Positions 1,851 to 57,451 of a stretch of 64,000 nucleotides of DNA are shown here, piece after piece. Each line of letters begins with the position of its first letter. Positions within the stretch are counted from its first letter, which is position 1. Below the pieces are notes generated by a model, which saw only the letters and a list, made by a program, of their open reading frames with translations, was not told the origin of the DNA and did no database searches. Source of the DNA: Faecousia sp. (lineage in GTDB: Bacteria; Bacillota; Clostridia; Oscillospirales; Oscillospiraceae); NCBI GenBank assembly GCA_045612705.1, contig JAZKZN010000028.1, forward strand, positions 1,287 to 65,286, read 5' to 3'. The position numbers and the translations under genes are program-made.

Positions 1851-2297
1851 TTACTTAATGACACCCTTTTGCAGGATGATGTTGGCGTAAATAGCGGTTT
1901 CACCGGACTGGAGGATGCAGTAGCAGTCCTTTGCTTCATCGTAGAAGTCAAAGCGGTCGATGTTGCCCACAGCTTCGGCGCCTCTGGGATCGTGCTTGGC
2001 AATAATGGCCTTGTACTCATCCCATACGGGAATGACCAGATCCTTGTCACACTCCATTTTCTCCATGAGAATAGCGGGCTTTTCCACATAGGTATCCAGA
2101 GGGAACACCTGCAGGATAGCATCCAGCAGTTCGGGAACGCCGTGACCATCGGCGCGCAGGAAAATAGCGTTCTTTGCCTTTGCCATATTGGCGCCGGGGA
2201 AATTGCCGTCGCCGATGCAGATACGGTCGGAGTGGCCCATTTCAGCCAGCACCTTCAGCAATTCGGGGGAGAGAATGGCGGGGATATTTTTTAACAT
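1851..2297 (-). CDS. fucU: RbsD/FucU family mutarotase
   Basis: MLKNIPAILSPELLKVLAEMGHSD, DGNFP, RFDFY and GETAIYANIILQKGV are typical FucU motifs. Confidence 0.92.
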   Translation of the reverse strand: MLKNIPAILSPELLKVLAEMGHSDRICIGDGNFPGANMAKAKNAIFLRADGHGVPELLDAILQVFPLDTYVEKPAILMEKMECDKDLVIPVWDEYKAIIAKHDPRGAEAVGNIDRFDFYDEAKDCYCILQSGETAIYANIILQKGVIK

Positions 2298-2368
2298 AAC
2301 GAAATCCTCCTAAAGTTGATTTTTAAAAAAGAGATGATACAATAAAAGAAAACAACGGAGGTGCCACT

Positions 2369-2932
2369 ATGGATTTTGCGGCAGAACTGACGAAGTTTTC
2401 TCGATTGGCAGAAGAAAAAAGATTTGTAAACAGTCTGGAAGGGAATCTTTCGGTAATAGATCGGGCAACAGGCAATATTTACATCACCCCGTCCCATAAG
2501 GCTAAGTGCTTTTTGACCCCGGAGCAGATCTGTGTCATTGCTCCTAACGGGGAGCAGATCAGCGGTACGGAGAAGAAATCCTCGGAATTCTATCTCCATC
2601 AGGCGGCCTACCAGGCGCGCCCCGACATCACCGCTGTGATACATTGTCACACGCCTTATTTGACCGCATATGCCTTGGCATACCGGGATTTTGTCCCTCG
2701 CAAGGATTCCTTCTTATACCAGATCTTCGGCACGATCCAATGCCTGCCCTTCGGAGAGCATGGCACGCACGCCATTCATCAAGGCATCGAGGATGCGCTG
2801 CGGGGGCGTCCGGTGGCGCTTCTGGGCGGCCACGGCGTGGTGTGTGTCGGCGCGGATCTGGAGGATGCGATAGGGCTGATGGAAGCGGCGGAAAATTATG
2901 CCAAGTCCCTTTGGATCCAGAGCAGATTATAA
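2369..2932 (+). CDS. Class II aldolase/adducin family (fuculose-1-phosphate aldolase-like)
   Basis: EGNLS, YITPS, SSEFYLH, HCH and GGHG zinc ligands; GGAGG RBS. Confidence 0.85.
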   Translation: MDFAAELTKFSRLAEEKRFVNSLEGNLSVIDRATGNIYITPSHKAKCFLTPEQICVIAPNGEQISGTEKKSSEFYLHQAAYQARPDITAVIHCHTPYLTAYALAYRDFVPRKDSFLYQIFGTIQCLPFGEHGTHAIHQGIEDALRGRPVALLGGHGVVCVGADLEDAIGLMEAAENYAKSLWIQSRL

Positions 2933-2975
2933 ACTCACTTATCTGCGCTTAGGATGATAAAAGGTACGTAGTTTG

Positions 2976-3007
2976 AAAAGAGGCGGTCCGGGGACCGCCT
3001 CTTTTTT
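2976..3007. terminator. Bidirectional intrinsic terminator
   Basis: aaaagaggcggtc-cggg-gaccgcctctttt. Confidence 0.85.
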
Positions 3008-3017
3008 GTTTGGGAAA

Positions 3018-4826
3018 TTAGTATGCCTTGTACATAGGACCGTAGGCAGCGCAAGCACGGTAGTCTGCGCCTTCCTTGTCCATACCGAAGGCATTCCAGC
3101 AAGCAGGACGGAAGATGTCCTCCTCGGGAACGTTGTGCATGCATACAGGGATACGCAGCATAGAGCACAGGGTGATCAGGTCAGCGCCGATGTGACCATA
3201 GGAGATAGCGCCGTGGTTAGCACCCCAGTTGTTCATGACCTCGTAAGCGGTCTTGAAGGGGGAGCCATCCTTGCCGTCGCAGCGAGGAGCAAACCAAGTG
3301 CAGGGCCAGGTGGGGTCGGTACGCATCATCAGAGTCTTGGTGACATCGTCGGGCAGCTGCACAGTCCAGCCTTCTGCGATCTGCAGAACGGGGCCCAGAC
3401 CCTTAACCAGATTCAGACGGATCATGGTAGCGGGCATATCAGCACGGGTGGTGAAGGAGGAGGAGAATCCGCCGCCACGGAAGTAGCCGTTGTCGGCTGC
3501 GGGCCAGGTGGTAGCATCGCACATCTTCTTGATATCCTCGTCGGTGACTTCCCACCACTTCTTCATAATGCCGTTGCCGTTCTCATCCTTGCATTCGCCG
3601 CAAGCGTCCAGAGCAGTAGCGCCGGAGTTGATCAGGTGAATGAAGCCGCCATTTTCCTTAGCCTTGCCTTCGACCTTGTAGCCGGAAGCACGCTCACAAG
3701 CCTCGGGAGACCAGTAAGTACGCACGTCGGAGAACATTTGAGCGCGGTTGGTCAGAAGCTTCATGAACAGCATGCCCAGACCGTTCAGAACGTCGTTCTC
3801 GGTAGCCAGGATGTAGGGCTCGCGAGCACCGTTGTGGTCGAAGGTGGAGTTCAGCAGAGCTTCAGGGAAGTCGCAGTTGGGATAGAAGTCAGTCCACTGA
3901 CGCTGACCCTGGAAGCCGCCGGCGATAGCGTTGTGGCCAACCATCTCTTCCTCGCAACCTGCGGGCAGGTTGGGGTTGCCGTTGAACATATCCTTGATGA
4001 TGCAGTACATCTTAGCCAGGAAGTCCCACTGCTCAGCCTTCTTCTCGTCGGAGGTCTTAACGAAGTCGGGGTTCTTGTCCCAGCCCTCCTTGCAGTTTTC
4101 CTTGATCCAAGCCTTGGCACGAGCAACTTCTTCGTGATCGTAGATGCCTTCGGACATTCGACGGATGATTTCTACCTCGTCAACGGATTCAACACGCATG
4201 CCCAGGTAGGACTCGATGAATGCGGGGTCGATAATAGAACCGCCGATACCCATGCAGATGGAGCCGATCTGCAGGTAGGACTTGCCACGCATAGTTGCAA
4301 CAGCAACAGCGGCGCGGGCGAAGCGCAGCAGCTTCTCCTGTACGTCAGCGGGAATGTTGGTGACCTCGTCCAGATTCTGAACGTCGTGACCATAGATGCC
4401 GAAAGCGGGCAGACCCTTCTGTGCGTGGCTAGCCAGAACGGAAGCCAGGTACACAGCGCCGGGACGCTCAGTGCCGTTGAAGCCCCATACGCCCTTGATG
4501 GTCTGGGGATCCATATCCATAGTTTCGGAGCCGTAGCACCAGCAGGGAGTGACAGTCAGGGTGATGTCAACGCCATTCTTCTTGAACTTTTCAGCGCAGG
4601 CAGCAGCTTCTGCTACGCGGCCGATGGTGGTGTCAGCGATGATGACCTTAACGGGCTCGCCGTTGGAGTACTGCAGATTTTCTTCGAACAGCTTCTTAGC
4701 GGCCTGAGCCATTGCCATGGTCTGGTCTTCCAGGCTCTCACGAACCTTCAGAGGTCCGCGGCGGCCGTCGATGGTGGGGCGAATACCGATTACGGGGTAA
4801 TCACCGACGTATCTGTTTTTTGCCAT
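3018..4826 (-). CDS. fucI: L-fucose (D-arabinose) isomerase
   Basis: [47 protein letters not shown]; 602 aa. Confidence 0.96.
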
Positions 4827-4919
4827 TGTAATTTCCTCCTAATTTCTCGCCGCAAAACGCGGGCATAGTTTACAATATCATATAACGCGTGCGCGCTACA
4901 TACGAAAGCATAGTCTCTT

Positions 4920-5897
4920 TCACAGAGAGATGCGGCATTTTAGCCGGGTGACCCGGGGCTCGCCGTCGTAGCCGTCCAGCCGTTCCAGCAGGAACTTGGC
5001 TGCGGTGGCGCCGATCAGATGGTCCGGCTGCTGCACGACAGGCAGGGGAGGCTTCATCATAGAGCATGTCTCCACACTGTCAAAACCGAAGACGTCTACA
5101 TCCTCGGGAATCCGCAGACCCCGTTCACGGGCAGCGGTGATAAAACCAAGGGTAATGTCATAGTTGGTGGTAAACACCGCAGTGGGAGGGTTGTCCCGGA
5201 GCATCAGATGCTCGCAACCCCGATAGCCGGTGGCAAAGTCATTGCCGCCGCTGAATACCAGACCGTCATCGTAAAGAATACCGGCGTCAGACAGGGCGCG
5301 AAGATAGCCTACCATACGCTCTTTCGCTGTATACACGGACTTGGGACCGGTGATAATGGCGATCCGCTGGTGTCCGCTGCTGATCAAACGGTTGACAGCC
5401 TCATAAACAATTTCGGAATTATCTACCAGCACAGCATCAATGTTTGCGCCCGAGATATCCCGGTCAATCAGCACGATGGGAATGCCGCAGTTGGCAGTAA
5501 GCTCCTTAAACTCGTCGTGAGACAGATCTTCGGGGGCATACACCAGTCCGTCAACACCGCAGGTGAGAATAAACTTCAGATTATCCCGCTCCATACCGTG
5601 ATTTGCGCCATAGCTGGAGATCAGACAGTGGTAATCCCGTTCCCGCATAGTCCGGGCCATAGACATCACTACATTCCCGAAGAAAGGGGCGGTCATATCC
5701 GGCAGAAGAATGCCTACAGAACGATTGCGCTGGCTTTTCAGGCCTCGGGCAAAAGGGTCGGCGTGGTAATCCAAAGCCTCAATGGCTTTGCGAATGGCTT
5801 CCGCGTTTTCTTTCCGAACATTGCCACCGTTCATAAATTTCGATATTGTGGAGGGCGCAACACCGGCCATCAAGGCCACATCTTTAATTGTTGCCAT
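4920..5897 (-). CDS. LacI family transcriptional regulator
   Basis: N-terminal ATIKDVALMAGVAPSTIS HTH plus a periplasmic-binding-type domain; ATG chosen from the upstream GGGGGTG RBS. Confidence 0.92.
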   Translation of the reverse strand: MATIKDVALMAGVAPSTISKFMNGGNVRKENAEAIRKAIEALDYHADPFARGLKSQRNRSVGILLPDMTAPFFGNVVMSMARTMRERDYHCLISSYGANHGMERDNLKFILTCGVDGLVYAPEDLSHDEFKELTANCGIPIVLIDRDISGANIDAVLVDNSEIVYEAVNRLISSGHQRIAIITGPKSVYTAKERMVGYLRALSDAGILYDDGLVFSGGNDFATGYRGCEHLMLRDNPPTAVFTTNYDITLGFITAARERGLRIPEDVDVFGFDSVETCSMMKPPLPVVQQPDHLIGATAAKFLLERLDGYDGEPRVTRLKCRISL

Positions 5898-5921
5898 AGC
5901 CACACCCCCCTAAATCTTGCT

Positions 5922-5938
5922 AAAAACGAATCGTTTCG
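5922..5938. promoter_or_regulatory. Putative LacI operator O1
   Basis: aaaaacgaatcgtttcg, a pseudo-palindrome (AAACGA-A-TCGTTT); exact reverse-complement copy at 6102-6118. Confidence 0.7.
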
Positions 5939-6024
5939 CGATGTGTCGACCGTAGGACGACATTTGTTTTCTTTATAATATAAAAAGATTTTTGTACTGT
6001 CAATACAAAAGTTGAAAAAAACTA

Positions 6025-6053
6025 TTGATTTTTTTGGCAAAGTTTATTATAAT
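6025..6053 (+). promoter_or_regulatory. sigmaA promoter for the sugar ABC operon
   Basis: TTGATT-N17-TATAAT. Confidence 0.6.
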
Positions 6054-6101
6054 AACTCCGTAAGCGCGTTTGAAGCCGGTCTGCAGGTAATAGTAAATAA
6101 A

Positions 6102-6118
6102 CGAAACGATTCGTTTTT
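6102..6118. promoter_or_regulatory. Putative LacI operator O2
   Basis: cgaaacgattcgttttt, the reverse complement of O1. Confidence 0.7.
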
Positions 6119-6281
6119 GTGCAACTTGCAACAAAGCGGCACAAATTGGCAATTTTCCCCTCTTGCGCAGTCTCCGTACAATTTATATATATTGTACACA
6201 AAGGTGGGACATCGGCCGTTCCGAGGACGAAGTTTTGCGTCTGCGATCTACAATTAATGATTAAGAAAGGTGAAGTTTGGA

Positions 6282-7781
6282 ATGGGTGAAACGATTCTGA
6301 AAATGCAAGGCATTCAGAAGTATTTCTCCGGCGTTCACGCTCTTAAGGGCGTTGATTTCGAATTGAGAGCCGGCGAAGTTCATGCGCTGATGGGCGAAAA
6401 TGGTGCCGGCAAGTCCACGTTGATTAAAGTTCTCTGTGGCATACATAAGAAAGACGGCGGCTCAATTGAGTATTTCGGCGAGAATGTGGAGTTTGGCAAC
6501 ATCGCTGAATCTCAGGCAGCCGGCATTAGCGTCATTCACCAGGAGCTGAATATGATGAACCACCTGACGGTGGCTCAGAATATGTTCATTGGCCGTGAGT
6601 TTATGAACGCCGGTTTCATCAACGACAAGAAGATGGAAGAAGAGGCGCAGCAGCTGTTCGACAAGATGGGCGTAAAGATCAATCCCTCTGTGAAGCTGGG
6701 CGACCTGACTGTTGGTAAGCAGCAGATGGTTGAGATCGCAAAGGCCGTCTCCCGCGACTGCAAGCTGCTGGTTCTGGACGAGCCTACTGCGGCACTGACA
6801 CTGCCTGAAGTTGAGGAACTGTTCAACATCATGCGCGACCTTCAGAAGAAGGGCATCGGTATGATTTACATCTCCCACCGTATGGACGAGATCAACCGCA
6901 TTTCCGACCGCGTGACCGTTATGCGTGACGGCGAATATGTCGGCACGGTGAACACTGCGGAAGTGACCAAGGACGACATCGTGAAGATGATGGTCGGCCG
7001 TGTGATCATGGGTGAGCAGAAGGCCTGTAGCAATTGCCCCGCAGATGCCGATATCCTCCTGGAGGTTAAGAACCTGAACGCCGGCCGTGAAGTCAAGAAT
7101 GTGAGCTTCACCCTGCGCAGGGGCGAGATCCTGGGCTTTGCAGGTTTGATGGGCGCTGGTCGTACGGAAGTTGCCCGAGCTCTTTACGGCGCTGATCCTC
7201 GTCAGACCGGTGAGATCATCCTCAAAGGCAAGAAGGTGAAGATCAGAACCCCCGAGCAGGCTGTTAAGAATGGCATCTGCTACCTGTCCGAAGACCGTAA
7301 GCGCTACGGCCTGATGCTGGACAAGTCCGTTGCTGAAAACACTACCATCTCCTCTGTGGATTCCTTTATTACCGCAGGTCTTATCAGCGATACCAAGATG
7401 CGCAGGGCTTCTGCTGAGTTCAATGAAAAGCTGCGCACCAAAACTCCTTCTATGGAGCAGTTGCTGAAGAACCTGTCCGGCGGCAACCAGCAAAAGGTTA
7501 TCATCGCCCGTTGGCTGATGAAGAACGCTGACATCTTTATTTTTGACGAGCCTACCCGCGGCATTGACGTGGGCGCTAAGAGTGAGATCTACCGCCTGAT
7601 GGAAGAATTGGTAGAACAGGGTAAATCCATCATTATGATTTCTTCCGAATTGCCCGAAGTCCTGCGTATGAGTGACCGGATCCTGGTTATGTGCGAAGGC
7701 CGTAAGACCGGCGAACTGGACATCTCCGAGGCAACCCAGGAGAAAATTATGCAACTTGCTACAATGCGAGAGGAGAATTAA
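6282..7781 (+). CDS. Monosaccharide ABC transporter ATP-binding protein (RbsA/MglA type, two NBDs)
   Basis: GENGAGKST, LDEPT, LSGGNQQK, DEPTRGIDVGAK. Confidence 0.95.
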   Translation: MGETILKMQGIQKYFSGVHALKGVDFELRAGEVHALMGENGAGKSTLIKVLCGIHKKDGGSIEYFGENVEFGNIAESQAAGISVIHQELNMMNHLTVAQNMFIGREFMNAGFINDKKMEEEAQQLFDKMGVKINPSVKLGDLTVGKQQMVEIAKAVSRDCKLLVLDEPTAALTLPEVEELFNIMRDLQKKGIGMIYISHRMDEINRISDRVTVMRDGEYVGTVNTAEVTKDDIVKMMVGRVIMGEQKACSNCPADADILLEVKNLNAGREVKNVSFTLRRGEILGFAGLMGAGRTEVARALYGADPRQTGEIILKGKKVKIRTPEQAVKNGICYLSEDRKRYGLMLDKSVAENTTISSVDSFITAGLISDTKMRRASAEFNEKLRTKTPSMEQLLKNLSGGNQQKVIIARWLMKNADIFIFDEPTRGIDVGAKSEIYRLMEELVEQGKSIIMISSELPEVLRMSDRILVMCEGRKTGELDISEATQEKIMQLATMREEN

Positions 7782-7783
7782 TT

Positions 7784-8854
7784 ATGAGCAAAAATAAGAA
7801 CCTTGCCTCCAAGAATGTGATGGCAGGCGGCAAGCAGAGCATCGTGATCATCTTTGCTGCAATTATCCTGTTTGCAGTCTTCTACCTCATCAACCCCGGC
7901 TTCGCCAGCAGCGGCAACCTGCTGACCATGGCTAAGTCCTTCGTGCCCTACGCAATCCTGTCCCTGGGCGTCACTTTTGTTATCGCCACCGGCGGTATCG
8001 ACCTGTCCATTGGTACTGTATGTATCGGCTCCGCTGTTCTGGCAGGTGCTATTTGCAGAACCGGCGTTTCCCTGGAAGACGGTGTCCTGTGGGCAACCAT
8101 TCCCATCATCATTGTCACCGGCCTGTGCTTCGGCCTGATCAACGGCCTGCTGGTTGCTAAGTGCAAGATCGCACCCTTCATTGCAACCCTGGGTACGATG
8201 CTGGTATCCCGCGGTCTGACCGCAGTTATCTCTGAGGCGATTCGTAAGACCTCTTCCGCTGTTAAGTACCCCACTACTGGTTGGTTCCAGAAGCTGTTCA
8301 CCAACCTGAACGGTTTCCCCATCGGCATCCTGTGGGTGCTGGGCCTGACTGTGATCTGCATGATCGTGATGTACAAGACCAAGGTCGGCCGCTATATCCT
8401 GGCTATCGGCTCCAACGAAGAAGCTGCCCGCCTGTCCGGTATCAACACTGACAAGTATAAGATCATTGCTTACGCTATCTGCGGCGCTTTCGCAGGTATG
8501 GCTGCTCTGTTCTATGTGGCTTCCAACCCCTCTCTGACCATCGCAGCCGGCAACGGCATGGAACTGGACGCTGTCGCAGGCGTGTACATTGGCGGCACTT
8601 CCACCACTGGTGGTTCCGCTTCCGTCATCGGCTCCCTGCTGGGCTCCCTGATTCTGGTTGTTATTCGCCAGGGCCTGAACATCGCTCTGAGCAGCGGCAG
8701 CGTGGTTTCCGCAACCAACATCACCTACGCTGTCACCGGTGTGATTGTTGTTGGCGCTGTTATGCTGGACGTTCTGAAGAAGAAGTCCGCTGCTAAGGTT
8801 AAGATTCCTGTTGCTACCGAAAAGAAGCCCCAGGAAACCGAAACCAAGGCTTAA
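7784..8854 (+). CDS. Monosaccharide ABC transporter permease (RbsC type)
   Basis: GGIDLSIG, PFIATLG, GSNEEAARLSGI, ELDAVAG. Confidence 0.95.
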   Translation: MSKNKNLASKNVMAGGKQSIVIIFAAIILFAVFYLINPGFASSGNLLTMAKSFVPYAILSLGVTFVIATGGIDLSIGTVCIGSAVLAGAICRTGVSLEDGVLWATIPIIIVTGLCFGLINGLLVAKCKIAPFIATLGTMLVSRGLTAVISEAIRKTSSAVKYPTTGWFQKLFTNLNGFPIGILWVLGLTVICMIVMYKTKVGRYILAIGSNEEAARLSGINTDKYKIIAYAICGAFAGMAALFYVASNPSLTIAAGNGMELDAVAGVYIGGTSTTGGSASVIGSLLGSLILVVIRQGLNIALSSGSVVSATNITYAVTGVIVVGAVMLDVLKKKSAAKVKIPVATEKKPQETETKA

Positions 8855-8913
8855 AACCATTATTGTGTAATTAAAACCGCGAGGTTTTATATAAAAATTA
8901 GGAGGAAAACAAA

Positions 8914-9975
8914 ATGAAGAAAATCATCGCACTGCTTCTGGCTCTGGTCCTGGTTCTGGGCCTGGCTGCATGCAACAAGCCCGTTGAGACCCCCGACAAC
9001 ACCCAGGGTACTGAGGGCGAAAACGTAGAGACCAGCAAGGGCACCATCGCTGTCATCGCTAAGGGCGAGACTCACGCTTTCTGGCAGGCTGTTAAGGCTG
9101 GCGCTGTTGACGCTGGTAAGGCTGCTGGCTACGAGGTCACCTTCCGTGGCCCCACCGCTGAGAGCGAAGAGTACGTCAACGCTCAGCGTGAGATGGTTCA
9201 GGCTGCTCTGAACAACAAGGACACCAAGGCTCTGGTTCTGGCTACTATCGGCCTGGGCTTCGCTGATGAGCTGACCGCTGCTTTCGACAAGGGTCTGCCC
9301 GTTGTTGAGTTCGACTCCGGTCTGTACTCCGGCGGCGCTGACATCACCGAGGGCAAGGATCCCACCATCGGTGGCGTTGCAACCGACAACTATGCTGCTG
9401 CTGGCGTTGTTGCTGAGAACTTCTATGCTTACCTGAAGAACAACAACCTGGCTGTTGACGGCTACAAGGTTGGTATCATCCAGCACGACTCCACCTCCAC
9501 CGGTATCGACCGCGCTGCAGGTTTCAAGGAGAACATCGAGAAGCTGGCTCAGGCTGACAACATCACTCTGGACATCAACGTTCAGGTTAAGGCCAACAAC
9601 GCTGGCGAGTACAAGCTGGGCCTGGCTGCTCTGAAGGATTGGGGCGCACAGTCCATCTTCATGACCAACGAAGGTGTTGTTAACGAAGTCTTCCCCGAAG
9701 TCTCCGACAACGCTGCTGCTTACAAGGACATCCTGTTCGCAGGCTTCGACGCTGGCACCAACCAGTACAACTGGATGAAGGACAACGGCGCTAACTACGC
9801 ACTGCTGGTTGGCTCTGTTGCTCAGGACTCCTACTCCATCGGCTACAAGGCTGTCGAGATGGCTATCAACAAGCTGGCTGGCCAGGAAGTTTCCGATGTG
9901 GGTATCGCTGGTGTTTGGTACACTGCTGAGAACATCGACGAGCAGAGAGACAAGAACATCTTCTACATGGGCTAA
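8914..9975 (+). CDS. Sugar ABC transporter substrate-binding lipoprotein
   Basis: Lipobox LAAC; FWQAVKAGA, TDNYAAA, GFDA; strongly biased codon usage suggests high expression. Confidence 0.92.
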   Translation: MKKIIALLLALVLVLGLAACNKPVETPDNTQGTEGENVETSKGTIAVIAKGETHAFWQAVKAGAVDAGKAAGYEVTFRGPTAESEEYVNAQREMVQAALNNKDTKALVLATIGLGFADELTAAFDKGLPVVEFDSGLYSGGADITEGKDPTIGGVATDNYAAAGVVAENFYAYLKNNNLAVDGYKVGIIQHDSTSTGIDRAAGFKENIEKLAQADNITLDINVQVKANNAGEYKLGLAALKDWGAQSIFMTNEGVVNEVFPEVSDNAAAYKDILFAGFDAGTNQYNWMKDNGANYALLVGSVAQDSYSIGYKAVEMAINKLAGQEVSDVGIAGVWYTAENIDEQRDKNIFYMG

Positions 9976-10013
9976 TCCTTACTGTAGTTGAATAGTTTTT
10001 GCGGCTAAAACCG

Positions 10014-10044
10014 ACCGGCACCACTTCGGTGGTGCCGGTTTTTT
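10014..10044 (+). terminator. Intrinsic terminator after the ABC operon
   Basis: accggcaccac-ttcg-gtggtgccggt followed by a T-run. Confidence 0.85.
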
Positions 10045-10094
10045 AGAACGCCCATACACTTGAGTGCTGAAGGGCAGAAAATGTGCTTTCAGTA

Positions 10095-10123
10095 TTGAAT
10101 TGTGTGGTAAATCGTAGTATAAT
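10095..10123 (+). promoter_or_regulatory. sigmaA promoter for the kinase-SDR-PHP-reductase operon
   Basis: TTGAAT-N17-TATAAT. Confidence 0.6.
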
Positions 10124-10176
10124 AAATGGGATAAGGGGAAGATGCCTTATCTTATGCTAAAACGGGAGTGTGACGA

Positions 10177-11652
10177 ATGGAAATTGTAAGAAACTTAATC
10201 GCATTTGACCTGGGCGCCAGCAATGGACGAGCTATTTTGGGCCAGTTCGATGGCGAGAAGGTCACTATGAAGGAACTGCACCGGTTTGAGAATAATTACA
10301 TTGAGATGAACGGTGTGTTTTACTGGGACACTCCCTATCTTTACAACCAGCTGAAGCAGGGATTGCTGAAGTTTAAGCAGGGCGGCTACGGCAAGTTGGA
10401 CGCCTTCGGTATTGATACTTGGGGTGTGGATTACGGTCTGCTGGACAAGAATGGCCATCTGGCCGGCGTGCCCCGCTCCTATCGGCTGGGCGTGCAGGCG
10501 GACATTGACGCAGTGAAGGAGAAGATCCCCGCCCAGACTCTGTTCTCCCGCACAGGCATTGACACAAACCTGACCTTTAACACCATCTACCAGCTCTACC
10601 GCAGACTCCGGGAGGAGGATGCCGCGTTGGAGGTGGCAGACACCATGCTTTTGACCCCCGACCTGCTGGGCTATTTCCTTACCGGCAGCAAGGGTACGGA
10701 ATACACCATCGCAACCACAACCGGCCTTTACAATCCCACTACTAAGGATTGGGATTGGGAGACCATCCGAGAACTGGGCTTGCCGGAGAAGATCTTCACC
10801 AAGATCGATAAGACCGGCACTATCCGCGGCTACCTGAGAGAGGAACTGTGTGAAGAGATCGGCCTGAACGCCGCGCCCTTTGTGGCGGTGGGCAGTCACG
10901 ATACGGCTTCCGCAGTTGCCGCAATCCCCGGTAAGGGTAGCTTCGCGTTCTGCTCCTCCGGTACTTGGAGCCTGTTTGGTGTTGAGACGGATAAGCCTGA
11001 CCTGAGTCCCGCAGCAGCTGCGGCAGGATTCTCTAATGAGGGTACGATCCAGGGCGGTTTCCGCCCCCTGTATAACATCGTTGGCATGTGGATCGTGCAG
11101 GAATGCCGTCGAGATTGGATCAAGGCAGGGAAGAATCTCAGCTGGGACGATGTGGTGGTAGAAGCCCGGAAGGCGGAACCTCTGCGCTCCATTATTGATA
11201 CCGATGCTCCTGAGTTCTATGCAGGCGGCAATATGGAGCAGAAGATTCAGGAGTTCTGCCGCAAGACCGGTCAGCCGGTCCCCGAGACGGTGGGCGAGGT
11301 GGCCCGCTGCATCTACGAGTCCTTGGCGCTGAAGTATCGCTACGCACTGGAAGGTCTTGAAAAGATGAAGGGCGAGAAGATCCGGTCCCTGAACATTGTC
11401 GGCGGCGGCATTAACAACAAGTTCCTTGACCAGCTGGTAGCTGACGCCCTGGACCGTGAGGTTGTCACCGGCCCTGTGGAAGGCGCTGCCATCGGCAACC
11501 TTCTCACCCAGGCTATGGCCCTGGGCGATATCAAGGATTTGGATCACCTGCGTCAGGTTGTCCGCAACTCTGAAGCGGTGGAATATTGGCAGCCCAACCA
11601 CACCGAGGCTTGGGAAGCTGCTTATGAGAAATTACTTACATTTTTGAAATAA
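10177..11652 (+). CDS. rhaB: Rhamnulokinase/fuculokinase-like FGGY kinase
   Basis: AFDLGASNGR, GIDTWGVDY, GSHDTASA, SSGTWSL, IVGGG. Confidence 0.88.
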   Translation: MEIVRNLIAFDLGASNGRAILGQFDGEKVTMKELHRFENNYIEMNGVFYWDTPYLYNQLKQGLLKFKQGGYGKLDAFGIDTWGVDYGLLDKNGHLAGVPRSYRLGVQADIDAVKEKIPAQTLFSRTGIDTNLTFNTIYQLYRRLREEDAALEVADTMLLTPDLLGYFLTGSKGTEYTIATTTGLYNPTTKDWDWETIRELGLPEKIFTKIDKTGTIRGYLREELCEEIGLNAAPFVAVGSHDTASAVAAIPGKGSFAFCSSGTWSLFGVETDKPDLSPAAAAAGFSNEGTIQGGFRPLYNIVGMWIVQECRRDWIKAGKNLSWDDVVVEARKAEPLRSIIDTDAPEFYAGGNMEQKIQEFCRKTGQPVPETVGEVARCIYESLALKYRYALEGLEKMKGEKIRSLNIVGGGINNKFLDQLVADALDREVVTGPVEGAAIGNLLTQAMALGDIKDLDHLRQVVRNSEAVEYWQPNHTEAWEAAYEKLLTFLK

Positions 11653-11669
11653 TTGGAGGAGATGACATT

Positions 11670-12548
11670 ATGAGCGTAGATATGACCAAGTGGCAGGAAA
11701 TTGCCAAGGCAAACATTCATAACCGTCCCGCAGGTACTGGCCGCCTGGCCGGCAAGATCACCATCGTCACCGGCGCTGCACAAGGCTTCGGTAAGGGTAT
11801 TGCCGAGGAACTGTACGCAGAGGGCGCAACGATCATCATCGCCGATATGAACCTGCCCCTGGCAGAGTCTGTCGCTGCTGAGATGGGTGAGCGTGCCTGG
11901 GCCATCGCTGTGAACGTCTCCGACGAAGAGAGCTGCGCCAATATGGTGGCTCAGGTTGTCGAAAAGTTCGGCGGTCTGGACATCATGGTAGCTAACGCCG
12001 GCGTTGTCCGTTCCGGTCCGATTGCTGAGTTCGAGAAGAAGGACTTTGACTTTGTCACCGCCATTAACTACACAGGACTGTTCCTCACCTGCAAGTACGC
12101 AGCCATCATTATGCAGGCTCAGCACGAGGCTGACCCCGAGGCAATGTTTGACATCATCGCCATGTCCTCCAAGTCCGGTCTGGAAGGTTCTAACAAGAAC
12201 TTTGCCTATGCTGGCTCCAAGTTTGGCGCTATCGGCCTGGTTCAGTCCTTTGCTCTGGAACTGTGCGCCTACAAGATCAAGGTCAACGCAATCTGCCCCG
12301 GCAATTATCTGGACGGTCCTCTGTGGTCCGATCCCGAGCGAGGCCTGTTTGTGCAGTACCTGAATGCCGGCAAGGTGCCCGGCGCAAAGACTGTGGAAGA
12401 CGTCCGCCGTTTCTATGAGGCTAAGGCTCCCATGAATCGCGGCTGCCTGCCTATCGATGTTGCCCGCGCTGTTATGTACTGCGTGGAGCAGAAGTATGAG
12501 ACCGGCCAGGCGATCCCCGTCACCGGCGGTCAGGTTATGCTGAACTGA
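11670..12548 (+). CDS. SDR oxidoreductase, sorbitol-6-phosphate 2-dehydrogenase (SrlD)-like
   Basis: TGAAQGFG, ANAG, SSKSG...NFAYAGSKFG, CPGNYLDGPLW. Confidence 0.8.
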   Translation: MSVDMTKWQEIAKANIHNRPAGTGRLAGKITIVTGAAQGFGKGIAEELYAEGATIIIADMNLPLAESVAAEMGERAWAIAVNVSDEESCANMVAQVVEKFGGLDIMVANAGVVRSGPIAEFEKKDFDFVTAINYTGLFLTCKYAAIIMQAQHEADPEAMFDIIAMSSKSGLEGSNKNFAYAGSKFGAIGLVQSFALELCAYKIKVNAICPGNYLDGPLWSDPERGLFVQYLNAGKVPGAKTVEDVRRFYEAKAPMNRGCLPIDVARAVMYCVEQKYETGQAIPVTGGQVMLN

Positions 12549-12560
12549 TAGAGGAATACA

Positions 12561-13715
12561 ATGATCGACATTACGATTCTGAATAAACTGAATGTACCTT
12601 CCCGGCAGGAACGCCTGGAGAATCTGAAGGAAGTCCTGAAGACTGCCCAGTTCCCGCCTATGGTACCCCAGTACATCAACAACCATATCCATACTACTTA
12701 TTCTTTCTCTCCTTATTCTCCCACGGCTGCGGTTTATGCCGCCCGTATGGAGGGCCTTTGCACCGCCGGTATTATCGACCACGATTCTATCTCCGGCGCC
12801 AAGGAGTTCTTGGAGGCAGCTGCGCTGGTGGATATGCCTGTCACCATCGGCATGGAGGCCCGTATTTCCATGGATGGCACCCGTTTGGCGGGCCGTCGTA
12901 CCAACAATCCGGACCAGGTGGGCGTCAGCTATATGACCATCCAGTCTGTTCCCCACAACAAGATTGACCGGCTAACCGAGTTTTTTAAGCCTTATCAGCA
13001 GGCTCGGCACGCCCGAAATCGGAAGATGATCCAGCGCATCAACGCACTTGTGGGCGTGGAACTGGATTATGACCGGGATGTACTGCCCCTGTCTGAGGCT
13101 GCCGACAACGGCGGTGTCACCGAGCGACATCTGATGTACGCCCTGGCCATTGAGCTGGTGAAGCAGGTGGGCAAGGGTCAGAGTATGATCGATAAACTCA
13201 CGAGCCTGGGTATGGACCTGTCCGAAAAGCAGAAGACGATGCTTATGGATACCCAGTATCCTTTCTACGAGTATGATGTTCTGGGCATGCTGAAAGGCAC
13301 ATTTGTTCCCAAGATCTTCATCGATGCTACCGACGAATGCCCTAAGCTGTCCGAGGTTGTAAAGCTCTGTGAGGAAGTGGACGCCTATCTGTGCTACGCC
13401 TATCTTGGCGATGTGGGCGACTCCGTCACCGGCGACAAGAAGGCACAGAAGTTTGAAGATGAATATCTGGATGATGTGTTTGAGTGCCTGAAGGAAGAGG
13501 GCGTCAAAGCCGTCACCTATATGCCCACCCGGAATACACCCCAGCAGCTTGAGCGCCTGCGCGGCCTTTGCGAGGAATATGGTATGTTCCAGATCTCCGG
13601 CGAGGATATCAATTCTCCCCGGCAGAGCTTTGTGATCAAGGCAATGGAGAACCCCATATTCCAGAATCTGATCGATGCCACCTGGAAGCTCATTGAACAC
13701 GAGAAAAATACTTGA
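12561..13715 (+). CDS. PHP domain phosphoesterase-like protein
   Basis: NNHIHTTYS, IIDHD, IGME and SGEDINS metal-binding motifs. Confidence 0.8.
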   Translation: MIDITILNKLNVPSRQERLENLKEVLKTAQFPPMVPQYINNHIHTTYSFSPYSPTAAVYAARMEGLCTAGIIDHDSISGAKEFLEAAALVDMPVTIGMEARISMDGTRLAGRRTNNPDQVGVSYMTIQSVPHNKIDRLTEFFKPYQQARHARNRKMIQRINALVGVELDYDRDVLPLSEAADNGGVTERHLMYALAIELVKQVGKGQSMIDKLTSLGMDLSEKQKTMLMDTQYPFYEYDVLGMLKGTFVPKIFIDATDECPKLSEVVKLCEEVDAYLCYAYLGDVGDSVTGDKKAQKFEDEYLDDVFECLKEEGVKAVTYMPTRNTPQQLERLRGLCEEYGMFQISGEDINSPRQSFVIKAMENPIFQNLIDATWKLIEHEKNT

Positions 13716-13742
13716 TTTTACTATATTTAGGAGGAAACAATT

Positions 13743-14996
13743 ATGATTACCAAGGCGGTACGAATCCACGGCAAGAATGACCTGCGTCTGGAAGAGATCA
13801 ACCTTCCCGAGGTAGGCCCTGACGATGTGCAGATTGAAATCATCTGCGACTCCGTATGTATGTCCACCTATAAGGCAGCCCTGGAAGGCGAGGACCACAA
13901 GCGCGTTCCCGATGATGTGGCAGAGAATCCCACCATCGTGGGCCACGAGTTCTGCGGCAATATCGTTGCAGTCGGTGAGAACTGGCAGCACAAGTACAAG
14001 GTTGGCGACAAGTTCTCCATCCAGCCCGCCCACTTCTATAAGGGCTCTCAGCTGGCTCCCGGCTATTCTTACAAGTTCTGCGGCGGCTCCGCTCAGTACG
14101 GCAATGTGCCCATCGAGACTCTGCTGTCCGACTGCCTGCTGCCCTACAACTCCGATACCTACTTCTACGGCTCCGTTGCTGAGCCTATGAGCTGCATTAT
14201 CGGCACCTTCCACGCAATGTACCATACCAAGGCTGGCTCCTATGTCCACGATATGGGCATCAAGGAAGGCGGCAAGATGGCTCTGCTGGCATCCGTTGGT
14301 CCTATGGGCCTGGGCGCAATTGACTACGCTATCCACTGCGACCGTCGTCCCTCTCTGCTGGTTGTCACCGATATCGATGAGGCCCGTCTGGAGCGCGCCG
14401 CTTCCATCTACACCGTTGAGGAAGCCGCAAAGAACGGCGTGGAGCTGCACTATGTGAATACCCGTATGGAGAACGCCACTCAGTACCTGCGTGACCTGAC
14501 CGGCGGCACCGGCTATGACGATGTCATCTGCTTCGCCCCTGTCAAGCCCGTTGTGGAGCAGGCTGACGACATCCTGGGCTTCGACGGCTGCCTGAACTTC
14601 TTCGCAGGCCCCACCGACAGCCAGTTCAAGGCGAACTTCAACTGGTACAACGTCCACTATCTGTACACCCATGTGGTTGGCACCTCCGGCGGTAATACCG
14701 ACGATATGAGAGAGGCCATCCAGATGATGAACGCCGGCACTCTGAATCCTGCTTCCATGATCACCCACATCGGCGGCCTGAACGCCGTGGTGGACACCGT
14801 CATGAATCTGCCCAAGATTCCCGGCGGCAAGAAGCTGATCTACAACCACATCGAGCTGCCCCTGACTGCGATTGCTGACTTCGAAGAAGCCGGCAAGACC
14901 AATCCCATGTTCGCAGAACTGGACCGTATCTGCAAGGCTCACAACGGCCTGTGGAACGCAGAGGCAGAGGCTTACCTGCTGGCTAACGCAAAGTAA
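13743..14996 (+). CDS. Zinc-binding dehydrogenase, L-sorbose-1-phosphate reductase (SorE)-like
   Basis: CDSVCMSTYK, GHEF, EPMSC, GPMGLG, GTSGG, THIGGL, LPKIPGGKKLIY. Confidence 0.8.
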   Translation: MITKAVRIHGKNDLRLEEINLPEVGPDDVQIEIICDSVCMSTYKAALEGEDHKRVPDDVAENPTIVGHEFCGNIVAVGENWQHKYKVGDKFSIQPAHFYKGSQLAPGYSYKFCGGSAQYGNVPIETLLSDCLLPYNSDTYFYGSVAEPMSCIIGTFHAMYHTKAGSYVHDMGIKEGGKMALLASVGPMGLGAIDYAIHCDRRPSLLVVTDIDEARLERAASIYTVEEAAKNGVELHYVNTRMENATQYLRDLTGGTGYDDVICFAPVKPVVEQADDILGFDGCLNFFAGPTDSQFKANFNWYNVHYLYTHVVGTSGGNTDDMREAIQMMNAGTLNPASMITHIGGLNAVVDTVMNLPKIPGGKKLIYNHIELPLTAIADFEEAGKTNPMFAELDRICKAHNGLWNAEAEAYLLANAK

Positions 14997-15040: not shown

Positions 15041-15092
15041 CAGTAAAATGACAAAAATCCCTTTATAAAAGAGAAAGGTTGTGTTTTGGCAA

Positions 15093-17156
15093 ATGGATGC
15101 AAAGTATGAGGCTTTATTTACCCCCTGGAAAGTGGGCAATGTAGAGATCAAGAACAGAATTGTCCTGTGCCCTATGGGCGGTACTTCTCTGTTCGGCTGG
15201 TTCGAGCTGACGGGCTGTAAGTTTGACAAGGAGGCGGCAAAGTTCTTCCTGGAACGGGCGCAGAACAATGTGGGTCTGATTATTCCCGGCATTGCCCCTC
15301 TGCGGGATACCTTCTGGGGCAAGTGGCTGTGGCAGAATCCTAAGATGTTTGAGGATCTGAAGGAGTTTATGGAGGAGATCCATAAGACAGGCGCAAAGCT
15401 GTTTGTACAGCTTACTGCAGGTATGGGCCGCAGCTGGGCGATCACCGAGCTGGTAGCGCCTCTGCACAAGAATAAGTTCACCCGCGCCCTGATCAAGCCG
15501 ATTCTGGACACCAGCCACGAGCTGGCAAGTCCCTCTCCGCTGCCCTCCCGCTGGGATCCGGAGATCACCACTCCCGAAATGACTCTGGAGCAGATCCACG
15601 AGATTATTGAGGCCTTTGCCAAGACCGCAAAGCTCTGCAAGGATGCAGGCGTGGACGGCGTGGAGGTACACGCAGTACACGAAGGCTATCTGCTGGATCA
15701 GTTCACTATGGAGTGGACCAATAAGCGTACAGACCAGTACGGCGGCTCTTTCGAAAACCGTTATCGTTTCCCTGTGGAGATCGTACAGGCCATCAAGGCA
15801 GCCTGCGGCCAGGATTTCCCTGTTTCCCTGCGGTATTCCGTAGAGTCCAAGGTCAAGGGCTTCCGGGAAGGCGCTGTCCCTGGTGAAAAATATACCGAGG
15901 TCGGCCGTAATATGGCTGAGTCCGAGAAGGCTGCCAAGTACCTGCAGGATGCAGGCTATGATATGCTGAATGCGGACAACGGTACTTACGATTCCTGGTA
16001 CTGGGCACATCCGCCCATGTATATGCCCCAGAACTGCAACCTGGAAGATGTGGCGCATATTAAGAAGTTTGTGGACATCCCCGTGGTTTGCGCCGGTCGT
16101 ATGGAGCCGGAGGTGGGCGCCCAGGCAGTGGCAGAAGGTCGGATCGACGGCGTGGGTATCGCCCGTCAGTTCCTGGCTGATCCTCAGTGGATCACCAAGC
16201 TGCTGGAGGAGCGTCTGGAGGATATTCGCCCCTGCATTTGCTGCCATTCCGGCTGCTTCAACTTCTCATCCTCCAAGGGTCACGCCAACACCCAGGACTT
16301 GACCGATACCATGGGTCTGGCTCGCTGCGCTCTGAATCCTCAGACTATGCAGTCCAAGAAATATCATATTGAAAAGGCAAAGAAGCAGAAGAACATCGCT
16401 GTGATCGGCGGCGGTATCGGCGGTATGGAGACCGCTCTTGTCTGCGCAAAGCGCGGCCACAAGGTGACCCTCTACGAAAAGAGCGGCGAGCTGGGCGGCG
16501 TATTCATCGCTGCGGCAGCGCCCTCTTTCAAGGAAAAGGACAGAGATCTGATCACCTGGTATCGCCGTGAACTGACCAAGTATCCCGCCATCGAAGTGAA
16601 GCTGAACACAGAGGTCACCGACATCGCCGCTCTGGGCGCTGATGAGGTGGTTGTCGCCACCGGTTCCAAGGCAAACCGCATCCCCGTTCCCGGCGCGGAC
16701 AAGGCTATCCAGGCCGTGGACTTCCTGCTGGGCAAGGGTGAGGTTGGCCAGAATGTGGTGATCGTAGGCGGCGGTCTGACCGGCTGTGAGATTGCATACG
16801 AGCTGTACCTGCAGGGCAAGAATCCCACTATCGTGGAAATGATGGACGATCTGATCTGCACCCCCGGCATCTGCCTGGCAAATACCAGCTTCCTCCGGGA
16901 CTTCTTCAAGGCCAATAATGTGCCCGTTTATCTGGAGCATGGCGTGGCAGCCATCGAAGACGGCACTGTGCTGATCAAGGATAAGGTCGGCGCAAAGCAG
17001 CGCATTGCCGCTGATAGCGTGATCCTCTCTGTTGGCTATAAACCTCAGCCCGTTGCTCAGGCCGGCAAGCATGTCCACTTGGTGGGCGACTGCAGCAAGG
17101 TAGGCAATCTTCGTACTGTCATCTGGCAGGCGTGGGATGTGGCCATGAAACTGTAA
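15093..17156 (+). CDS. 2-enoate reductase-like NADH:flavin oxidoreductase (OYE barrel, 4Fe-4S, FAD domain)
   Basis: HAVHEGYLLDQF, NKRTDQYGGSFENR, CICCHSGC...C, two GGG dinucleotide-binding motifs. Confidence 0.88.
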   Translation: MDAKYEALFTPWKVGNVEIKNRIVLCPMGGTSLFGWFELTGCKFDKEAAKFFLERAQNNVGLIIPGIAPLRDTFWGKWLWQNPKMFEDLKEFMEEIHKTGAKLFVQLTAGMGRSWAITELVAPLHKNKFTRALIKPILDTSHELASPSPLPSRWDPEITTPEMTLEQIHEIIEAFAKTAKLCKDAGVDGVEVHAVHEGYLLDQFTMEWTNKRTDQYGGSFENRYRFPVEIVQAIKAACGQDFPVSLRYSVESKVKGFREGAVPGEKYTEVGRNMAESEKAAKYLQDAGYDMLNADNGTYDSWYWAHPPMYMPQNCNLEDVAHIKKFVDIPVVCAGRMEPEVGAQAVAEGRIDGVGIARQFLADPQWITKLLEERLEDIRPCICCHSGCFNFSSSKGHANTQDLTDTMGLARCALNPQTMQSKKYHIEKAKKQKNIAVIGGGIGGMETALVCAKRGHKVTLYEKSGELGGVFIAAAAPSFKEKDRDLITWYRRELTKYPAIEVKLNTEVTDIAALGADEVVVATGSKANRIPVPGADKAIQAVDFLLGKGEVGQNVVIVGGGLTGCEIAYELYLQGKNPTIVEMMDDLICTPGICLANTSFLRDFFKANNVPVYLEHGVAAIEDGTVLIKDKVGAKQRIAADSVILSVGYKPQPVAQAGKHVHLVGDCSKVGNLRTVIWQAWDVAMKL

Positions 17157-17174
17157 TGTAAAAGGAGAAAAGCC

Positions 17175-18455
17175 ATGATTTTAACACCTGAACAGCAAAG
17201 TATTCTGGACGGCGCCAAGGGTGAGATCCAGGCAAAGGTCATGAAGACTCTGGTGATGTACGGCGAGGCTTTCGGCGCTGATAAGATGGTCCCTGTCACA
17301 TCTGAATATAACCATTTGGTGACTTCTTTCGGTCTGAAGATGATGGGCCCCGTGTTTGACCTGATGCAGCAGCTGATTGACAGCGGCGCGATCTCTCAGC
17401 AGAAGTTCTCCGTTGACCCCCGTCCTTTGGATAAAAATGTCCCGGCCAACTTCCTGCAGAACTTCATTTTCAACAACTTTATGTACTCCAAGCAGGCTGA
17501 CTACGAAAAGCAGCTGCAGGCTCTGGGCCTTGTGAATGAGGATGCTTTTACCTGCGCTTGCTATTTCGACCAGGTAGGCAACACCCCCAAGAAGGGTGAT
17601 GTTCTCAGCTGGGCAGAGTCCTCTGCGGTGGTGTATGCCAACTCCGTGCTGGGCGCAAGATGCAACCGCAATTCCGGCATTATGGACATTATGGGCTCTA
17701 TCGCCGGTTTCGTTCCTTCCTTCGGCCTGCTGACCGACGAAGGCAGAAAGGCTACCTGGATCGTGAAGGTACAGACCACCAAGAAGCCGGAGGCGCAGCT
17801 GCTGGGCTCTGCTATCGGCATGAAGGTGATGGAGGATGTGCCTTACATCACCGGTCTCAGCAAGTGGATCGGCACAGAGCTGAATGAAACCGCCTGCGCT
17901 TATCTGAAGGACTTTGGCGCAGCCACCGCCTCCAATGGCGCTGTGGGTCTGTACCATGTGGAAAACCTGACTCCCGAAGCCGTGGAGCAGGGTGCAGCCT
18001 TGATCGCCGAGGGCGCAAAGGAATACATCATTGATGACGCTGAACTGGAGCGGGTGAAAAACGAGTACCCCGTGATCTGGAAGAACAAGGATGCCAAGCC
18101 CAAGCTGTGCTTTGTGGGTTGCCCCCATCTGTCTCTGCAGCAGCTGAAGGACTGGACCGATCGGGTAGAAGAGGGCCTGAAGGCTTCTGGCCTCAAGAAG
18201 GTGGCCATCCCCACTGTATTTACCACCGCTCCTGCAGTAAAGAAGGAGTTTGAAGCCACAGAATATGCCGCCCGCCTGGAAAAGATCGGTGTCATTCTCT
18301 CCTACATCTGTCCGCTGATGTATATGAATAACCCCCTGGCTGGCAAGATGCCCGTCATTACCTGTTCCAACAAGCTGCGGACCTACACCACCGCCCGTTA
18401 TTACACGGAGGACGAAATCCTTCAGCAAATCACCAAAGGAGGCGCTGTGAAATGA
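17175..18455 (+). CDS. Aconitase X catalytic (large) subunit, DUF521
   Basis: FTCACY, WAESSAVVYANSVLGARCNR, GLYHVENLTPEA, GCPHLS. Confidence 0.88.
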   Translation: MILTPEQQSILDGAKGEIQAKVMKTLVMYGEAFGADKMVPVTSEYNHLVTSFGLKMMGPVFDLMQQLIDSGAISQQKFSVDPRPLDKNVPANFLQNFIFNNFMYSKQADYEKQLQALGLVNEDAFTCACYFDQVGNTPKKGDVLSWAESSAVVYANSVLGARCNRNSGIMDIMGSIAGFVPSFGLLTDEGRKATWIVKVQTTKKPEAQLLGSAIGMKVMEDVPYITGLSKWIGTELNETACAYLKDFGAATASNGAVGLYHVENLTPEAVEQGAALIAEGAKEYIIDDAELERVKNEYPVIWKNKDAKPKLCFVGCPHLSLQQLKDWTDRVEEGLKASGLKKVAIPTVFTTAPAVKKEFEATEYAARLEKIGVILSYICPLMYMNNPLAGKMPVITCSNKLRTYTTARYYTEDEILQQITKGGAVK

Positions 18456-18895
18456 GAGAGTTCAAAGGCCGTATTGTCACTCCCGGCACTGTGACCGCAC
18501 CTGCCGTGGTCAGCCACGGAGGACTGAACACCCTGGCATCCTTCCAGAAGGCGCTGCAGTTCGGCGACAAGAAAGCCACCTGCGGTGACCAGAACAACCC
18601 CGATCTGTACGGCAAGGAGATGGCCGGCAAGGCTCTGTGCCTGCCTCAGACCATTGGCTCCACTACCGGCGGTATGGTGCTGTACTGCGCCTGCGCCATG
18701 GAGCGTCAGCCCGCTTGTATGCTCTTCAGTAATCCTATCGATTCCCTGGCCGCTGCCGGTTCGATCCTGGCCTCTGTGTGGCTGGAAGGCAGCAAAATGC
18801 CCGTTGTGGACTGCCTGGGCGAGGAGTTCCTGAACTATGTGCAGGACGGTATGATGATCACCATTCGGGAAGACGGCACTGTGTGCGTCGATTGA
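18452..18895 (+). CDS. Aconitase X swivel (small) subunit, DUF126
   Basis: LYGKEMAGKALCLP, GSTTG; directly follows the DUF521 gene. Confidence 0.85.
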   Translation: MREFKGRIVTPGTVTAPAVVSHGGLNTLASFQKALQFGDKKATCGDQNNPDLYGKEMAGKALCLPQTIGSTTGGMVLYCACAMERQPACMLFSNPIDSLAAAGSILASVWLEGSKMPVVDCLGEEFLNYVQDGMMITIREDGTVCVD

Positions 18896-56990: not shown

Positions 56991-57031
56991 TGTTTTATGT
57001 TATTAAACTGACCGACAAATTGGAATTTATT

Positions 57032-57349
57032 TCACTCGGAGAGGTCTTTGGCCATGACATGTTCAACGATTCCGTTGTCGTCGTAATAGACTATAACGTG
57101 TTTGTTTTTTTCGCTTACTAATTGCCAAATTTCACCCCAGAAGCCAGAAAGCTGACCGTCGGGTTCTCCCCAAGCATCCAATATGTCTTCTCGTGAAATA
57201 CCAATGAGTTTTTCGCCCAATTCCTCTTGGCTGCATTCGTTGACTTTTTCTAATGGTAAAATTTGTTTATTTGCATCTTCCTTTGTGTTACATGCACATA
57301 GACCAAGTACACAGACCAACGCTAAAACTAATGCTATCAACTTTTTCAT
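57032..57349 (-). CDS. Small lipoprotein (cassette 1 cargo)
   Basis: Lipoprotein signal MKKLIALVLALVCVLGLCAC; AAAGGAG RBS; AT-rich. Confidence 0.75.
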   Translation of the reverse strand: MKKLIALVLALVCVLGLCACNTKEDANKQILPLEKVNECSQEELGEKLIGISREDILDAWGEPDGQLSGFWGEIWQLVSEKNKHVIVYYDDNGIVEHVMAKDLSE

Positions 57350-57407
57350 ACAATCCCGCTCCTTTCTCAAATTCTTATTTATCGACCTAACTGCATTATA
57401 CCATTGC

Positions 57408-57436: not shown

Positions 57437-57451
57437 TGTTTTGTAAAAATA

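Follow-up and report, generated by a model that had tools for sequence, protein, structure and literature searches.

What does a fucose-isomerase locus do with enzymes of the sorbose and sorbitol type? The question is raised by positions 1851-14996 of a 64,000-nucleotide stretch of Faecousia sp. DNA (contig JAZKZN010000028.1; hereafter the window), where fucI and fucU stand with a RhaB/FucK-type kinase, a SrlD-like short-chain dehydrogenase/reductase (SDR), a PHP-fold protein and a SorE-like medium-chain dehydrogenase/reductase (MDR). Judging from gene content, we propose with a probability of about 0.6 that this module turns a 6-deoxy-L-hexose into acetyl-CoA and a four-carbon sugar phosphate by flip and cleavage, independently of an aldolase. 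On the best explanation that we can offer, uptake, activation and rearrangement make up the half of the route that is encoded in the window, whereas the genes for cleavage, a deoR-E2-E3-E1 cluster with a lipoate ligase gene, are found on a different contig of this genome (C13 of G000; G, C and L numbers are our handles for genomes, contigs and loci). The window genes assigned to activation and rearrangement are as follows:

1851-2297, minus strand: fucU, L-fucose mutarotase family (PF05025, 9e-43), located 3' of fucI in 13 related loci
3018-4826, minus strand: fucI, L-fucose isomerase (TIGR01089 and PRK10991 above cut-off)
10177-11652, plus strand: RhaB/FucK-type ketose 1-kinase (TIGR02627, 432 bits, cut-off 528)
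11670-12548, plus strand: SrlD-like SDR (best model sorbitol-6-phosphate dehydrogenase, PRK12384)
12561-13715, plus strand: PHP-fold protein that forms a separate family and has changed metal ligands; core gene of the module
13743-14996, plus strand: SorE/YggP-family MDR (sequence identity to SorE and YggP)

An earlier note on this DNA had named these genes and the class II aldolase gene listed further below, and profile matches confirmed all of them at their places. FucI passed the equivalog cut-off (TIGR01089, 949.9 bits vs 850), and the kinase matched E. coli RhaB (2.5e-91) and FucK (4C23, 2e-86). The kinase, SDR, PHP and MDR genes are separated by 17, 12 and 27 bp, with ribosome-binding sites. 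Because of these short gaps, a promoter-like site ahead of the kinase (10095-10123) and a closing hairpin after the MDR, we regard the four genes as one operon, as the note had claimed.

The proposed route and its enzymes

The first steps, well supported by family assignments, would be ABC import, FucU, isomerisation by FucI to L-fuculose and phosphorylation to L-fuculose-1-phosphate (-P below). The old C3 would next be inverted to yield 6-deoxy-L-sorbose-1-P, the simplest assumption being that the PHP protein is the 3-epimerase; the MDR would reduce C2 to give 1-deoxy-D-glucitol-6-P, and the SDR would oxidise the carbon next to the methyl group, giving the methyl ketol 1-deoxy-D-fructose-6-P. 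A thiamine/lipoate complex would finally cleave this product in the manner of acetoin dehydrogenase, yielding acetyl-CoA, NADH and D-erythrose-4-P. The flip product would be a methyl ketone, and complexes of the acetoin-dehydrogenase type split such compounds into acetyl-CoA and an aldehyde. The earlier note had foreseen a SorE/SrlD-type reduction and reoxidation of the kinase product, which the family matches of the MDR and SDR support, and had exempted L-fuculose-1-P from it for want of a terminal hydroxyl route. That exemption falls away: a 6-deoxy sugar can be flipped because the SDR would act on a secondary alcohol, at the old C5 next to the methyl group, and a terminal hydroxyl is unneeded.

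SorE reduces L-sorbose-1-P to D-glucitol-6-P, which SrlD then oxidises at C2. Over 415 aa the MDR shares 46.5% identity with Klebsiella SorE, with active-site motifs almost unchanged, and it is 54.6% identical to E. coli YggP, its nearest named relative, whose gene lies in cmtBA-yggP-yggF-fumE-yggC (L002:5127-10481). The SDR scored 209 bits with PRK12384, under the cut-off of 307 yet top among all models, and its top PDB match was 5O3Z, which makes a sorbitol-6-phosphate dehydrogenase its nearest solved relative; its identity to Klebsiella SorD is only 27%. We predict that the MDR is a 6-deoxy-ketose-1-P reductase and the SDR a 1-deoxy-hexitol-6-P 2-dehydrogenase. The reduce-then-reoxidise logic and the SorE motifs are common to the window and the L-sorbose pathway (SorE with SorD/SrlD in Klebsiella, E. 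coli and Lacticaseibacillus). Unlike that pathway, the window locus has an ABC transporter and a LacI regulator instead of a mannose-family phosphotransferase system (PTS) and SorC, receives its substrate from an isomerase and a RhaB-type kinase, carries the PHP gene and is linked to a lipoyl complex.

Book-keeping of the stereocentres showed agreement at all centres between 6-deoxy-L-sorbose-1-P and the SorE substrate, and between 1-deoxy-D-glucitol-6-P and the SrlD substrate. Compared with 6-deoxy-L-sorbose-1-P, L-fuculose-1-P differs at C3 only and L-rhamnulose-1-P at both C3 and C4. One inversion for fucose and two for rhamnose are mirrored in gene content, PHP being present everywhere and a RhaE-like class II aldolase-fold domain being extra in rhaA loci: this gene follows rhaA in 21/21 loci and fucI in 0/23. 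At the genome level (counted partly from match numbers), rhaA and the RhaE-like domain occur together in 43 genomes, rhaA only in 2, the domain only in 5 and neither in 8, and both rhaA-only genomes have a RhaD-sized aldolase. In rhamnose users, the added protein would invert C4, turning rhamnulose-1-P into fuculose-1-P. A tandem two-domain class II aldolase of ~430 aa (L233, L244, L104:7133-8419) is also often found near rhaA and the RhaE-like gene.

The PHP protein adopts the PHP barrel fold in a predicted model (pLDDT 95; vs 3O0F, Z 26.1, root-mean-square deviation 2.7, 272 aligned). It keeps H42, H44, H74, E99 and D349. Measured against what we take to be the canonical trinuclear ligand set, with positions assigned by motif, three ligands are replaced in most of 31 sequences (the SDG Asp by Phe49, the motif-III His by Tyr281 and the DxH His by Asn351), which fits a non-hydrolytic role. 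Structure and Atlas searches with the protein returned only phosphoesterase-type PHP folds and unnamed clusters. The predicted function is that of a C3 epimerase, or else of a later isomerase or phosphatase. Were the flip to proceed without epimerisation, it would give 1-deoxy-D-tagatose-6-P, whose cleavage would yield D-threose-4-P for repair afterwards; we hold a 3-epimerase and a role after such a cleavage to be about equally probable for PHP.

Long PHP fusions mostly have unrelated partners, and only a fusion to an MtlD-like domain (L118:10001-12523) sits in a module locus. Five further loci (L196, L197, L199, L200, L202) run MDR-E2-E3-E1-lplA and then an MtlD-like dehydrogenase gene, with PHP not found; MtlD-like loci perhaps represent a flip of the D series, with a deoxy-mannitol phosphate as intermediate. 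An MtlD-like gene also occurs on C57 of the window's genome, next to a PfkB kinase.

Conservation of the module and its thiamine/lipoate partner

PHP was used as the marker gene of the module, and 150 PHP-centred loci were compared, many of them cut by contig ends. The SDR was present in 111 and the MDR in 95. Other common neighbours were the kinase, fucI or rhaA, the RhaE-like gene, either standing alone or joined to that of the SDR, and a gene for a fused E1alpha-beta (~824 aa; E1 below) accompanied by lipoyl E2, E3 and lipoate genes. Some clostridial genomes (L157, L164, L167-169) carry E2-E3-E1-MDR-SDR-PHP-kinase-rhaA as a single operon, and two distant records show the arrangement deoR-E2-E3-E1-PHP-SDR-MDR.

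Whole-genome searches within one order detected E1 in 55/58 PHP-positive vs 34/242 PHP-negative genomes, and across the phylum in 14/14 vs 3/386; kinship among the genomes, most of them metagenome bins, makes such counts overstate independence, and absences mean not found. E1 was also present in 10/13 less complete close relatives and in 10/10 genomes with a fucI locus resembling that of the window. The pattern spans many families and persists where the operon is split. Co-occurrence with fucI in other genomes, on which the earlier note had staked its reading beforehand, was borne out: among the 58 PHP-positive genomes, 46 had fucI, 45 rhaA and 54 either, compared with 6, 10 and 13 of 46 genomes that lack both PHP and E1. 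The natural substrates common to FucI and RhaA as a class are 6-deoxy-L-hexoses. These results confirm that the module is conserved far above chance.

In the window's genome, the deoR-E2-E3-E1 cluster occupies G000:C13:398-8222 (L111), with three lipoyl domains in E2 and a divergent lplA. The fused E1 scored below the pyruvate dehydrogenase (PDH) cut-offs (TIGR03182, 211 vs 394; PRK09212, 240 vs 321). The partner locus resembles acetoin dehydrogenase AcoABCL in holding E1alpha, E1beta, lipoyl E2, E3 and a lipoate ligase and in its proposed reaction, which would split a methyl ketol into acetyl-CoA and an aldehyde; it is unlike AcoABCL in its fused E1, its DeoR/SorC sugar-phosphate regulators and its predicted sugar-phosphate substrate. 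A metallo-beta-lactamase-fold gene directly after E1 is conserved in the lineage (L134, L136, L191-193, L195), and contig C51 carries a second E1 3' end with the same gene downstream.

An independent hint at the E1 substrate came from G346 (L131:1305-17217), where E2-E3-E1 lies between orthologs of PflD and YbiW, with a fructose-type PTS flanking. PMC13450708 reports that both enzymes make 1-deoxyfructose-6-P, the intermediate proposed here, after radical ring opening of 1,5-anhydrohexitols. The anhydroglycolysis described there differs in its known ending, an aldolase cleavage to hydroxyacetone and glyceraldehyde-3-P (GAP), and the G346 locus is possibly an aldolase-free end to it.

TalC/FSA (transaldolase/fructose-6-phosphate aldolase) or phosphofructokinase (PFK) genes flank E1 in several loci, as the disposal of erythrose-4-P would need. 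The window's genome has transketolase, class II fructose-bisphosphate aldolase (FBA) and PFK, and TalC gave no match in it; transketolase, class II FBA and PFK would in principle suffice for disposal through sedoheptulose bisphosphate. Among E1 loci that lack PHP, three (L126, L127, L261) carry xylose-isomerase-like barrel epimerases and sugar kinases; they include a 52% identical E1 on Rhizobium plasmid pRL8, accompanied by a lipoyl domain and an alpha/beta hydrolase.

Aldolases and rival explanations

The window's class II aldolase gene (2369-2932) is the sole PF00596 gene of its genome and scored 86 bits vs 264 with PRK06833. It is a lineage-limited insert on the opposite strand between fucI and fucU, with orthologs (70-74%) in two sister genomes only, and it is missing at the same spot in most orthologous loci (L017, L020, L022, L032, L058, L063). 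A class II aldolase-fold gene was not found in G576 and G660 (98% complete, with fucI and E1 present), and AraD was the only one found in G718 and in cultured Flintibacter muris (DSM 110149), which has E1 and a full module locus (L063). No lactaldehyde reductase gene scored above cut-off in these four genomes or in the window's own, which is 87% complete. The earlier note had reported no lactaldehyde reductase or microcompartment genes in the window; there are none in positions 1-22000, and a search of the window's genome for a propanediol microcompartment found only the ethanolamine (eut) type. The eut locus (G000:C1:27800-36200; L142) comprises eutB, eutC, an aldehyde dehydrogenase gene and an iron-type alcohol dehydrogenase gene. 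Some module genomes thus seem to have no other means of using 6-deoxy-L-hexoses. With the classical fuc/rha pathway (FucI-FucK-FucA-FucO) the window shares fucU, fucI, the kinase and a class II aldolase; it differs in that no FucO over cut-off and no propanediol microcompartment were found, in the lineage-limited character of its aldolase and in four further conserved enzymes.

A described cluster of matching gene content is the rhamnose cluster of Caldicellulosiruptor (Csac_0865-0876 / Athe_0702-4; L103-L109, presumed Caldicellulosiruptor), which likewise has MDR, SDR, PHP and class II aldolase-fold genes, lipAB, E2-E3-E1 and rhaA. The window differs as a fucose version on two contigs, with ABC and LacI genes and without rhaA or the RhaE-like gene. 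The Caldicellulosiruptor cluster is induced on rhamnose, and its functions are stated as unclear (PMC4187192, PMC8579813). A C. bescii model paper did not treat rhamnose.

Several points weigh against flip and cleavage, beginning with the relatedness of the sampled genomes. We know of no PHP-family epimerase, and the nearest solved relatives of PHP are phosphoesterases of the YciV/BAD_1165 type. Of the 34 PHP-negative genomes with E1, half have neither fucI nor rhaA, which indicates that E1 serves other feeders, and a general link of E1 with YbiW/PflD was not found (1/37 genomes tested). With its aldolase-type Glu and its similarity to RhaE, a demonstrated aldolase (PMC3870299), the RhaE-like domain may simply cleave, and many module genomes encode a tandem FucA-like protein. 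The remaining points speak at the same time for a classical aldolase route. The window aldolase is intact, with its catalytic residues kept, and may provide this lineage with a classical route running in parallel. For Athe_0702-4 of C. bescii, a three-subunit dehydrogenase, the guess of Rodionov and colleagues was removal of lactaldehyde (PMC8579813). C. saccharolyticus on rhamnose formed 1,2-propanediol and acetate at 1:1 even though the cluster was induced (PMC4187192), which argues that acetyl-CoA cleavage was not the main flux under those conditions. That organism has several aldolase-fold genes, and either both routes may coexist in it or the proposed route may be wrong.

In such a classical route, FucA/RhaE-like aldolases would form dihydroxyacetone phosphate and L-lactaldehyde, lactaldehyde, propanediol and acetol would be converted into one another by the MDR and SDR, and a complex like acetoin dehydrogenase would oxidise one of these or make NADH from pyruvate; in a variant, an aldolase would split the flip product to acetol and GAP. 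The layout of the aldolase-SDR fusion of many relatives, which is that of bifunctional RhaEW aldolase/dehydrogenases, would agree with it. However, the fusion scored 269 bits with the RhaEW model TIGR02632 (cut-off 568; window SDR alone, 154), its SDR part is SrlD-like, and its N-terminal domain is missing from fucI-only loci. The MDR and SDR are moreover nearest to sugar-phosphate enzymes, not lactaldehyde enzymes, PHP would be left without a role, and module genomes with fucI exist in which no aldolase was found. We therefore consider this route unlikely, though it is the strongest of the rivals.

Less probable still is the version of the earlier note, in which the aldolase receives fucose and the flip is reserved for D-arabinose (yielding D-xylulose-5-P) or L-galactose (yielding tagatose-6-P or fructose-6-P). 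FucI does act on D-arabinose and L-galactose, L-tagatose-1-P shows the right face to an SrlD-like enzyme, and the operon carries a promoter-like site of its own and lacks a LacI operator. D-arabitol-1-P, in contrast, would show the wrong face, and sister loci have added an AraK-like ribulokinase for D-ribulose (after the MDR in L004, L026, L032, L038, L047, L058, L063 and L088; 12 loci carry one), probably as a direct entry of D-ribulose from D-arabinose. D-xylulose-5-P or tagatose-6-P as product would not need the lipoyl E1/E2/E3, whose 95% co-occurrence and shared operons with the module would go unexplained, as would a rhaA link as frequent as that to fucI. L-galactose is kept as a plausible side substrate, which the same enzymes could convert to fructose-6-P. 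The note saw half of the system and probably picked the wrong sugar.

Overflow or repair, in which the MDR would reduce surplus ketose-1-P, PHP would dephosphorylate the product, fucitol or rhamnitol would exit and the SDR would re-oxidise free polyol, is very improbable: the PHP fold is a phosphoesterase fold and E. coli yggP likewise adjoins a phosphatase and a kinase gene, but the cycle would cost ATP for zero yield, leave the aldolase-free genomes without a catabolic route and clash with the three altered metal ligands. A PTS-free L-sorbose route (ABC import, a kinase forming L-sorbose-1-P, SorE, SrlD and fructose-6-P, with fucI a mere neighbour) is the least credible of all, since the nearest characterised MDR and SDR homologs use exactly these compounds but RhaB/FucK-type kinases, the type found here, take the other C3 configuration, and the fucI, rhaA and E1 links would be unexplained.

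No published description of flip and cleavage was found in the literature on SorE with fucose isomerase, yggP/cmtA, the Caldicellulosiruptor lipoate cluster or 6-deoxy-L-sorbose/1-deoxyfructose-6-P, a search that mostly did not cover subscription journals. The parts come from known families and the cluster has already been seen in Caldicellulosiruptor; as far as searched, the route is biochemically undescribed. What the window adds is a fucose-only split form, the match of stereochemistry with gene content, aldolase-free genomes, one of them from a cultured strain, and the hint from YbiW/PflD. We advance only tentatively, at rather less than even odds, a wider proposal: L-fucose and L-rhamnose would have a third route, widespread in anaerobes, that passes through 6-deoxy-L-sorbose-1-P and 1-deoxy-D-fructose-6-P; two undescribed activities would serve it, 3-epimerisation of a sugar phosphate by a PHP-fold protein and cleavage of a sugar phosphate to acetyl-CoA and erythrose-4-P by a thiamine/lipoate complex; and this complex would be a general 1-deoxyketose-phosphate dehydrogenase with other feeders such as YbiW/PflD.

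Remaining features and significance

The other features of the locus are:

2369-2932, plus strand: class II aldolase, FucA-like (PF00596), catalytic Glu and three His kept
4920-5903, minus strand: LacI-family regulator (PF00356 and PF00532), adjoining fucI in ~20 loci
5927-5938: candidate LacI operator 1, CGAATCGTTTCG, a palindrome of the type upstream of 20/20 orthologous lacI genes examined
6102-6113: candidate LacI operator 2, CGAAACGATTCG, an inverted copy of operator 1
6270-7781, plus strand: monosaccharide ABC transporter ATPase (PF00005 x2)
7784-8854, plus strand: ABC permease (PF02653)
8914-9975, plus strand: sugar-binding lipoprotein (PF13407)

The palindromes at 5927 and 6102, the only two exact copies in the genome, are likely operators of LacI; none was found before the kinase operon or before the E1 cluster. 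The binding protein is 28-86% identical among orthologous loci, and its PDB relatives are too distant for naming a ligand. The nearest loci belong to ruminant-gut Faecousia and related Oscillospiraceae. The base composition of the locus is even with the remainder of the contig, on which an AT-rich island lies at window positions 57000-61000 (GC 0.37-0.44 vs 0.54 elsewhere). An enoate-reductase-like gene and a two-subunit aconitase X (15081-18895) follow the MDR, likewise in L020; the former also occurs in L019, and in L195 all three genes adjoin lplA-deoR-E2-E3-E1. They may be tied to the module or reflect shared ancestral synteny.

Fucose from mucin and rhamnose from pectin are major gut and rumen sugars, for which models assume that half of the carbon is lost as propanediol, propionate or lactate. 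If true, the route proposed here would use all six carbons, avoid lactaldehyde, give by our estimate ~2x the ATP and alter the predicted products and hydrogen yield, and its marker gene PHP is present in 58/300 sampled genomes of the order. It would further give roles to the genes left unexplained in the rhamnose cluster of Caldicellulosiruptor, provide a lead on E. coli YggP and account for a PDH-like complex retained by strict anaerobes.

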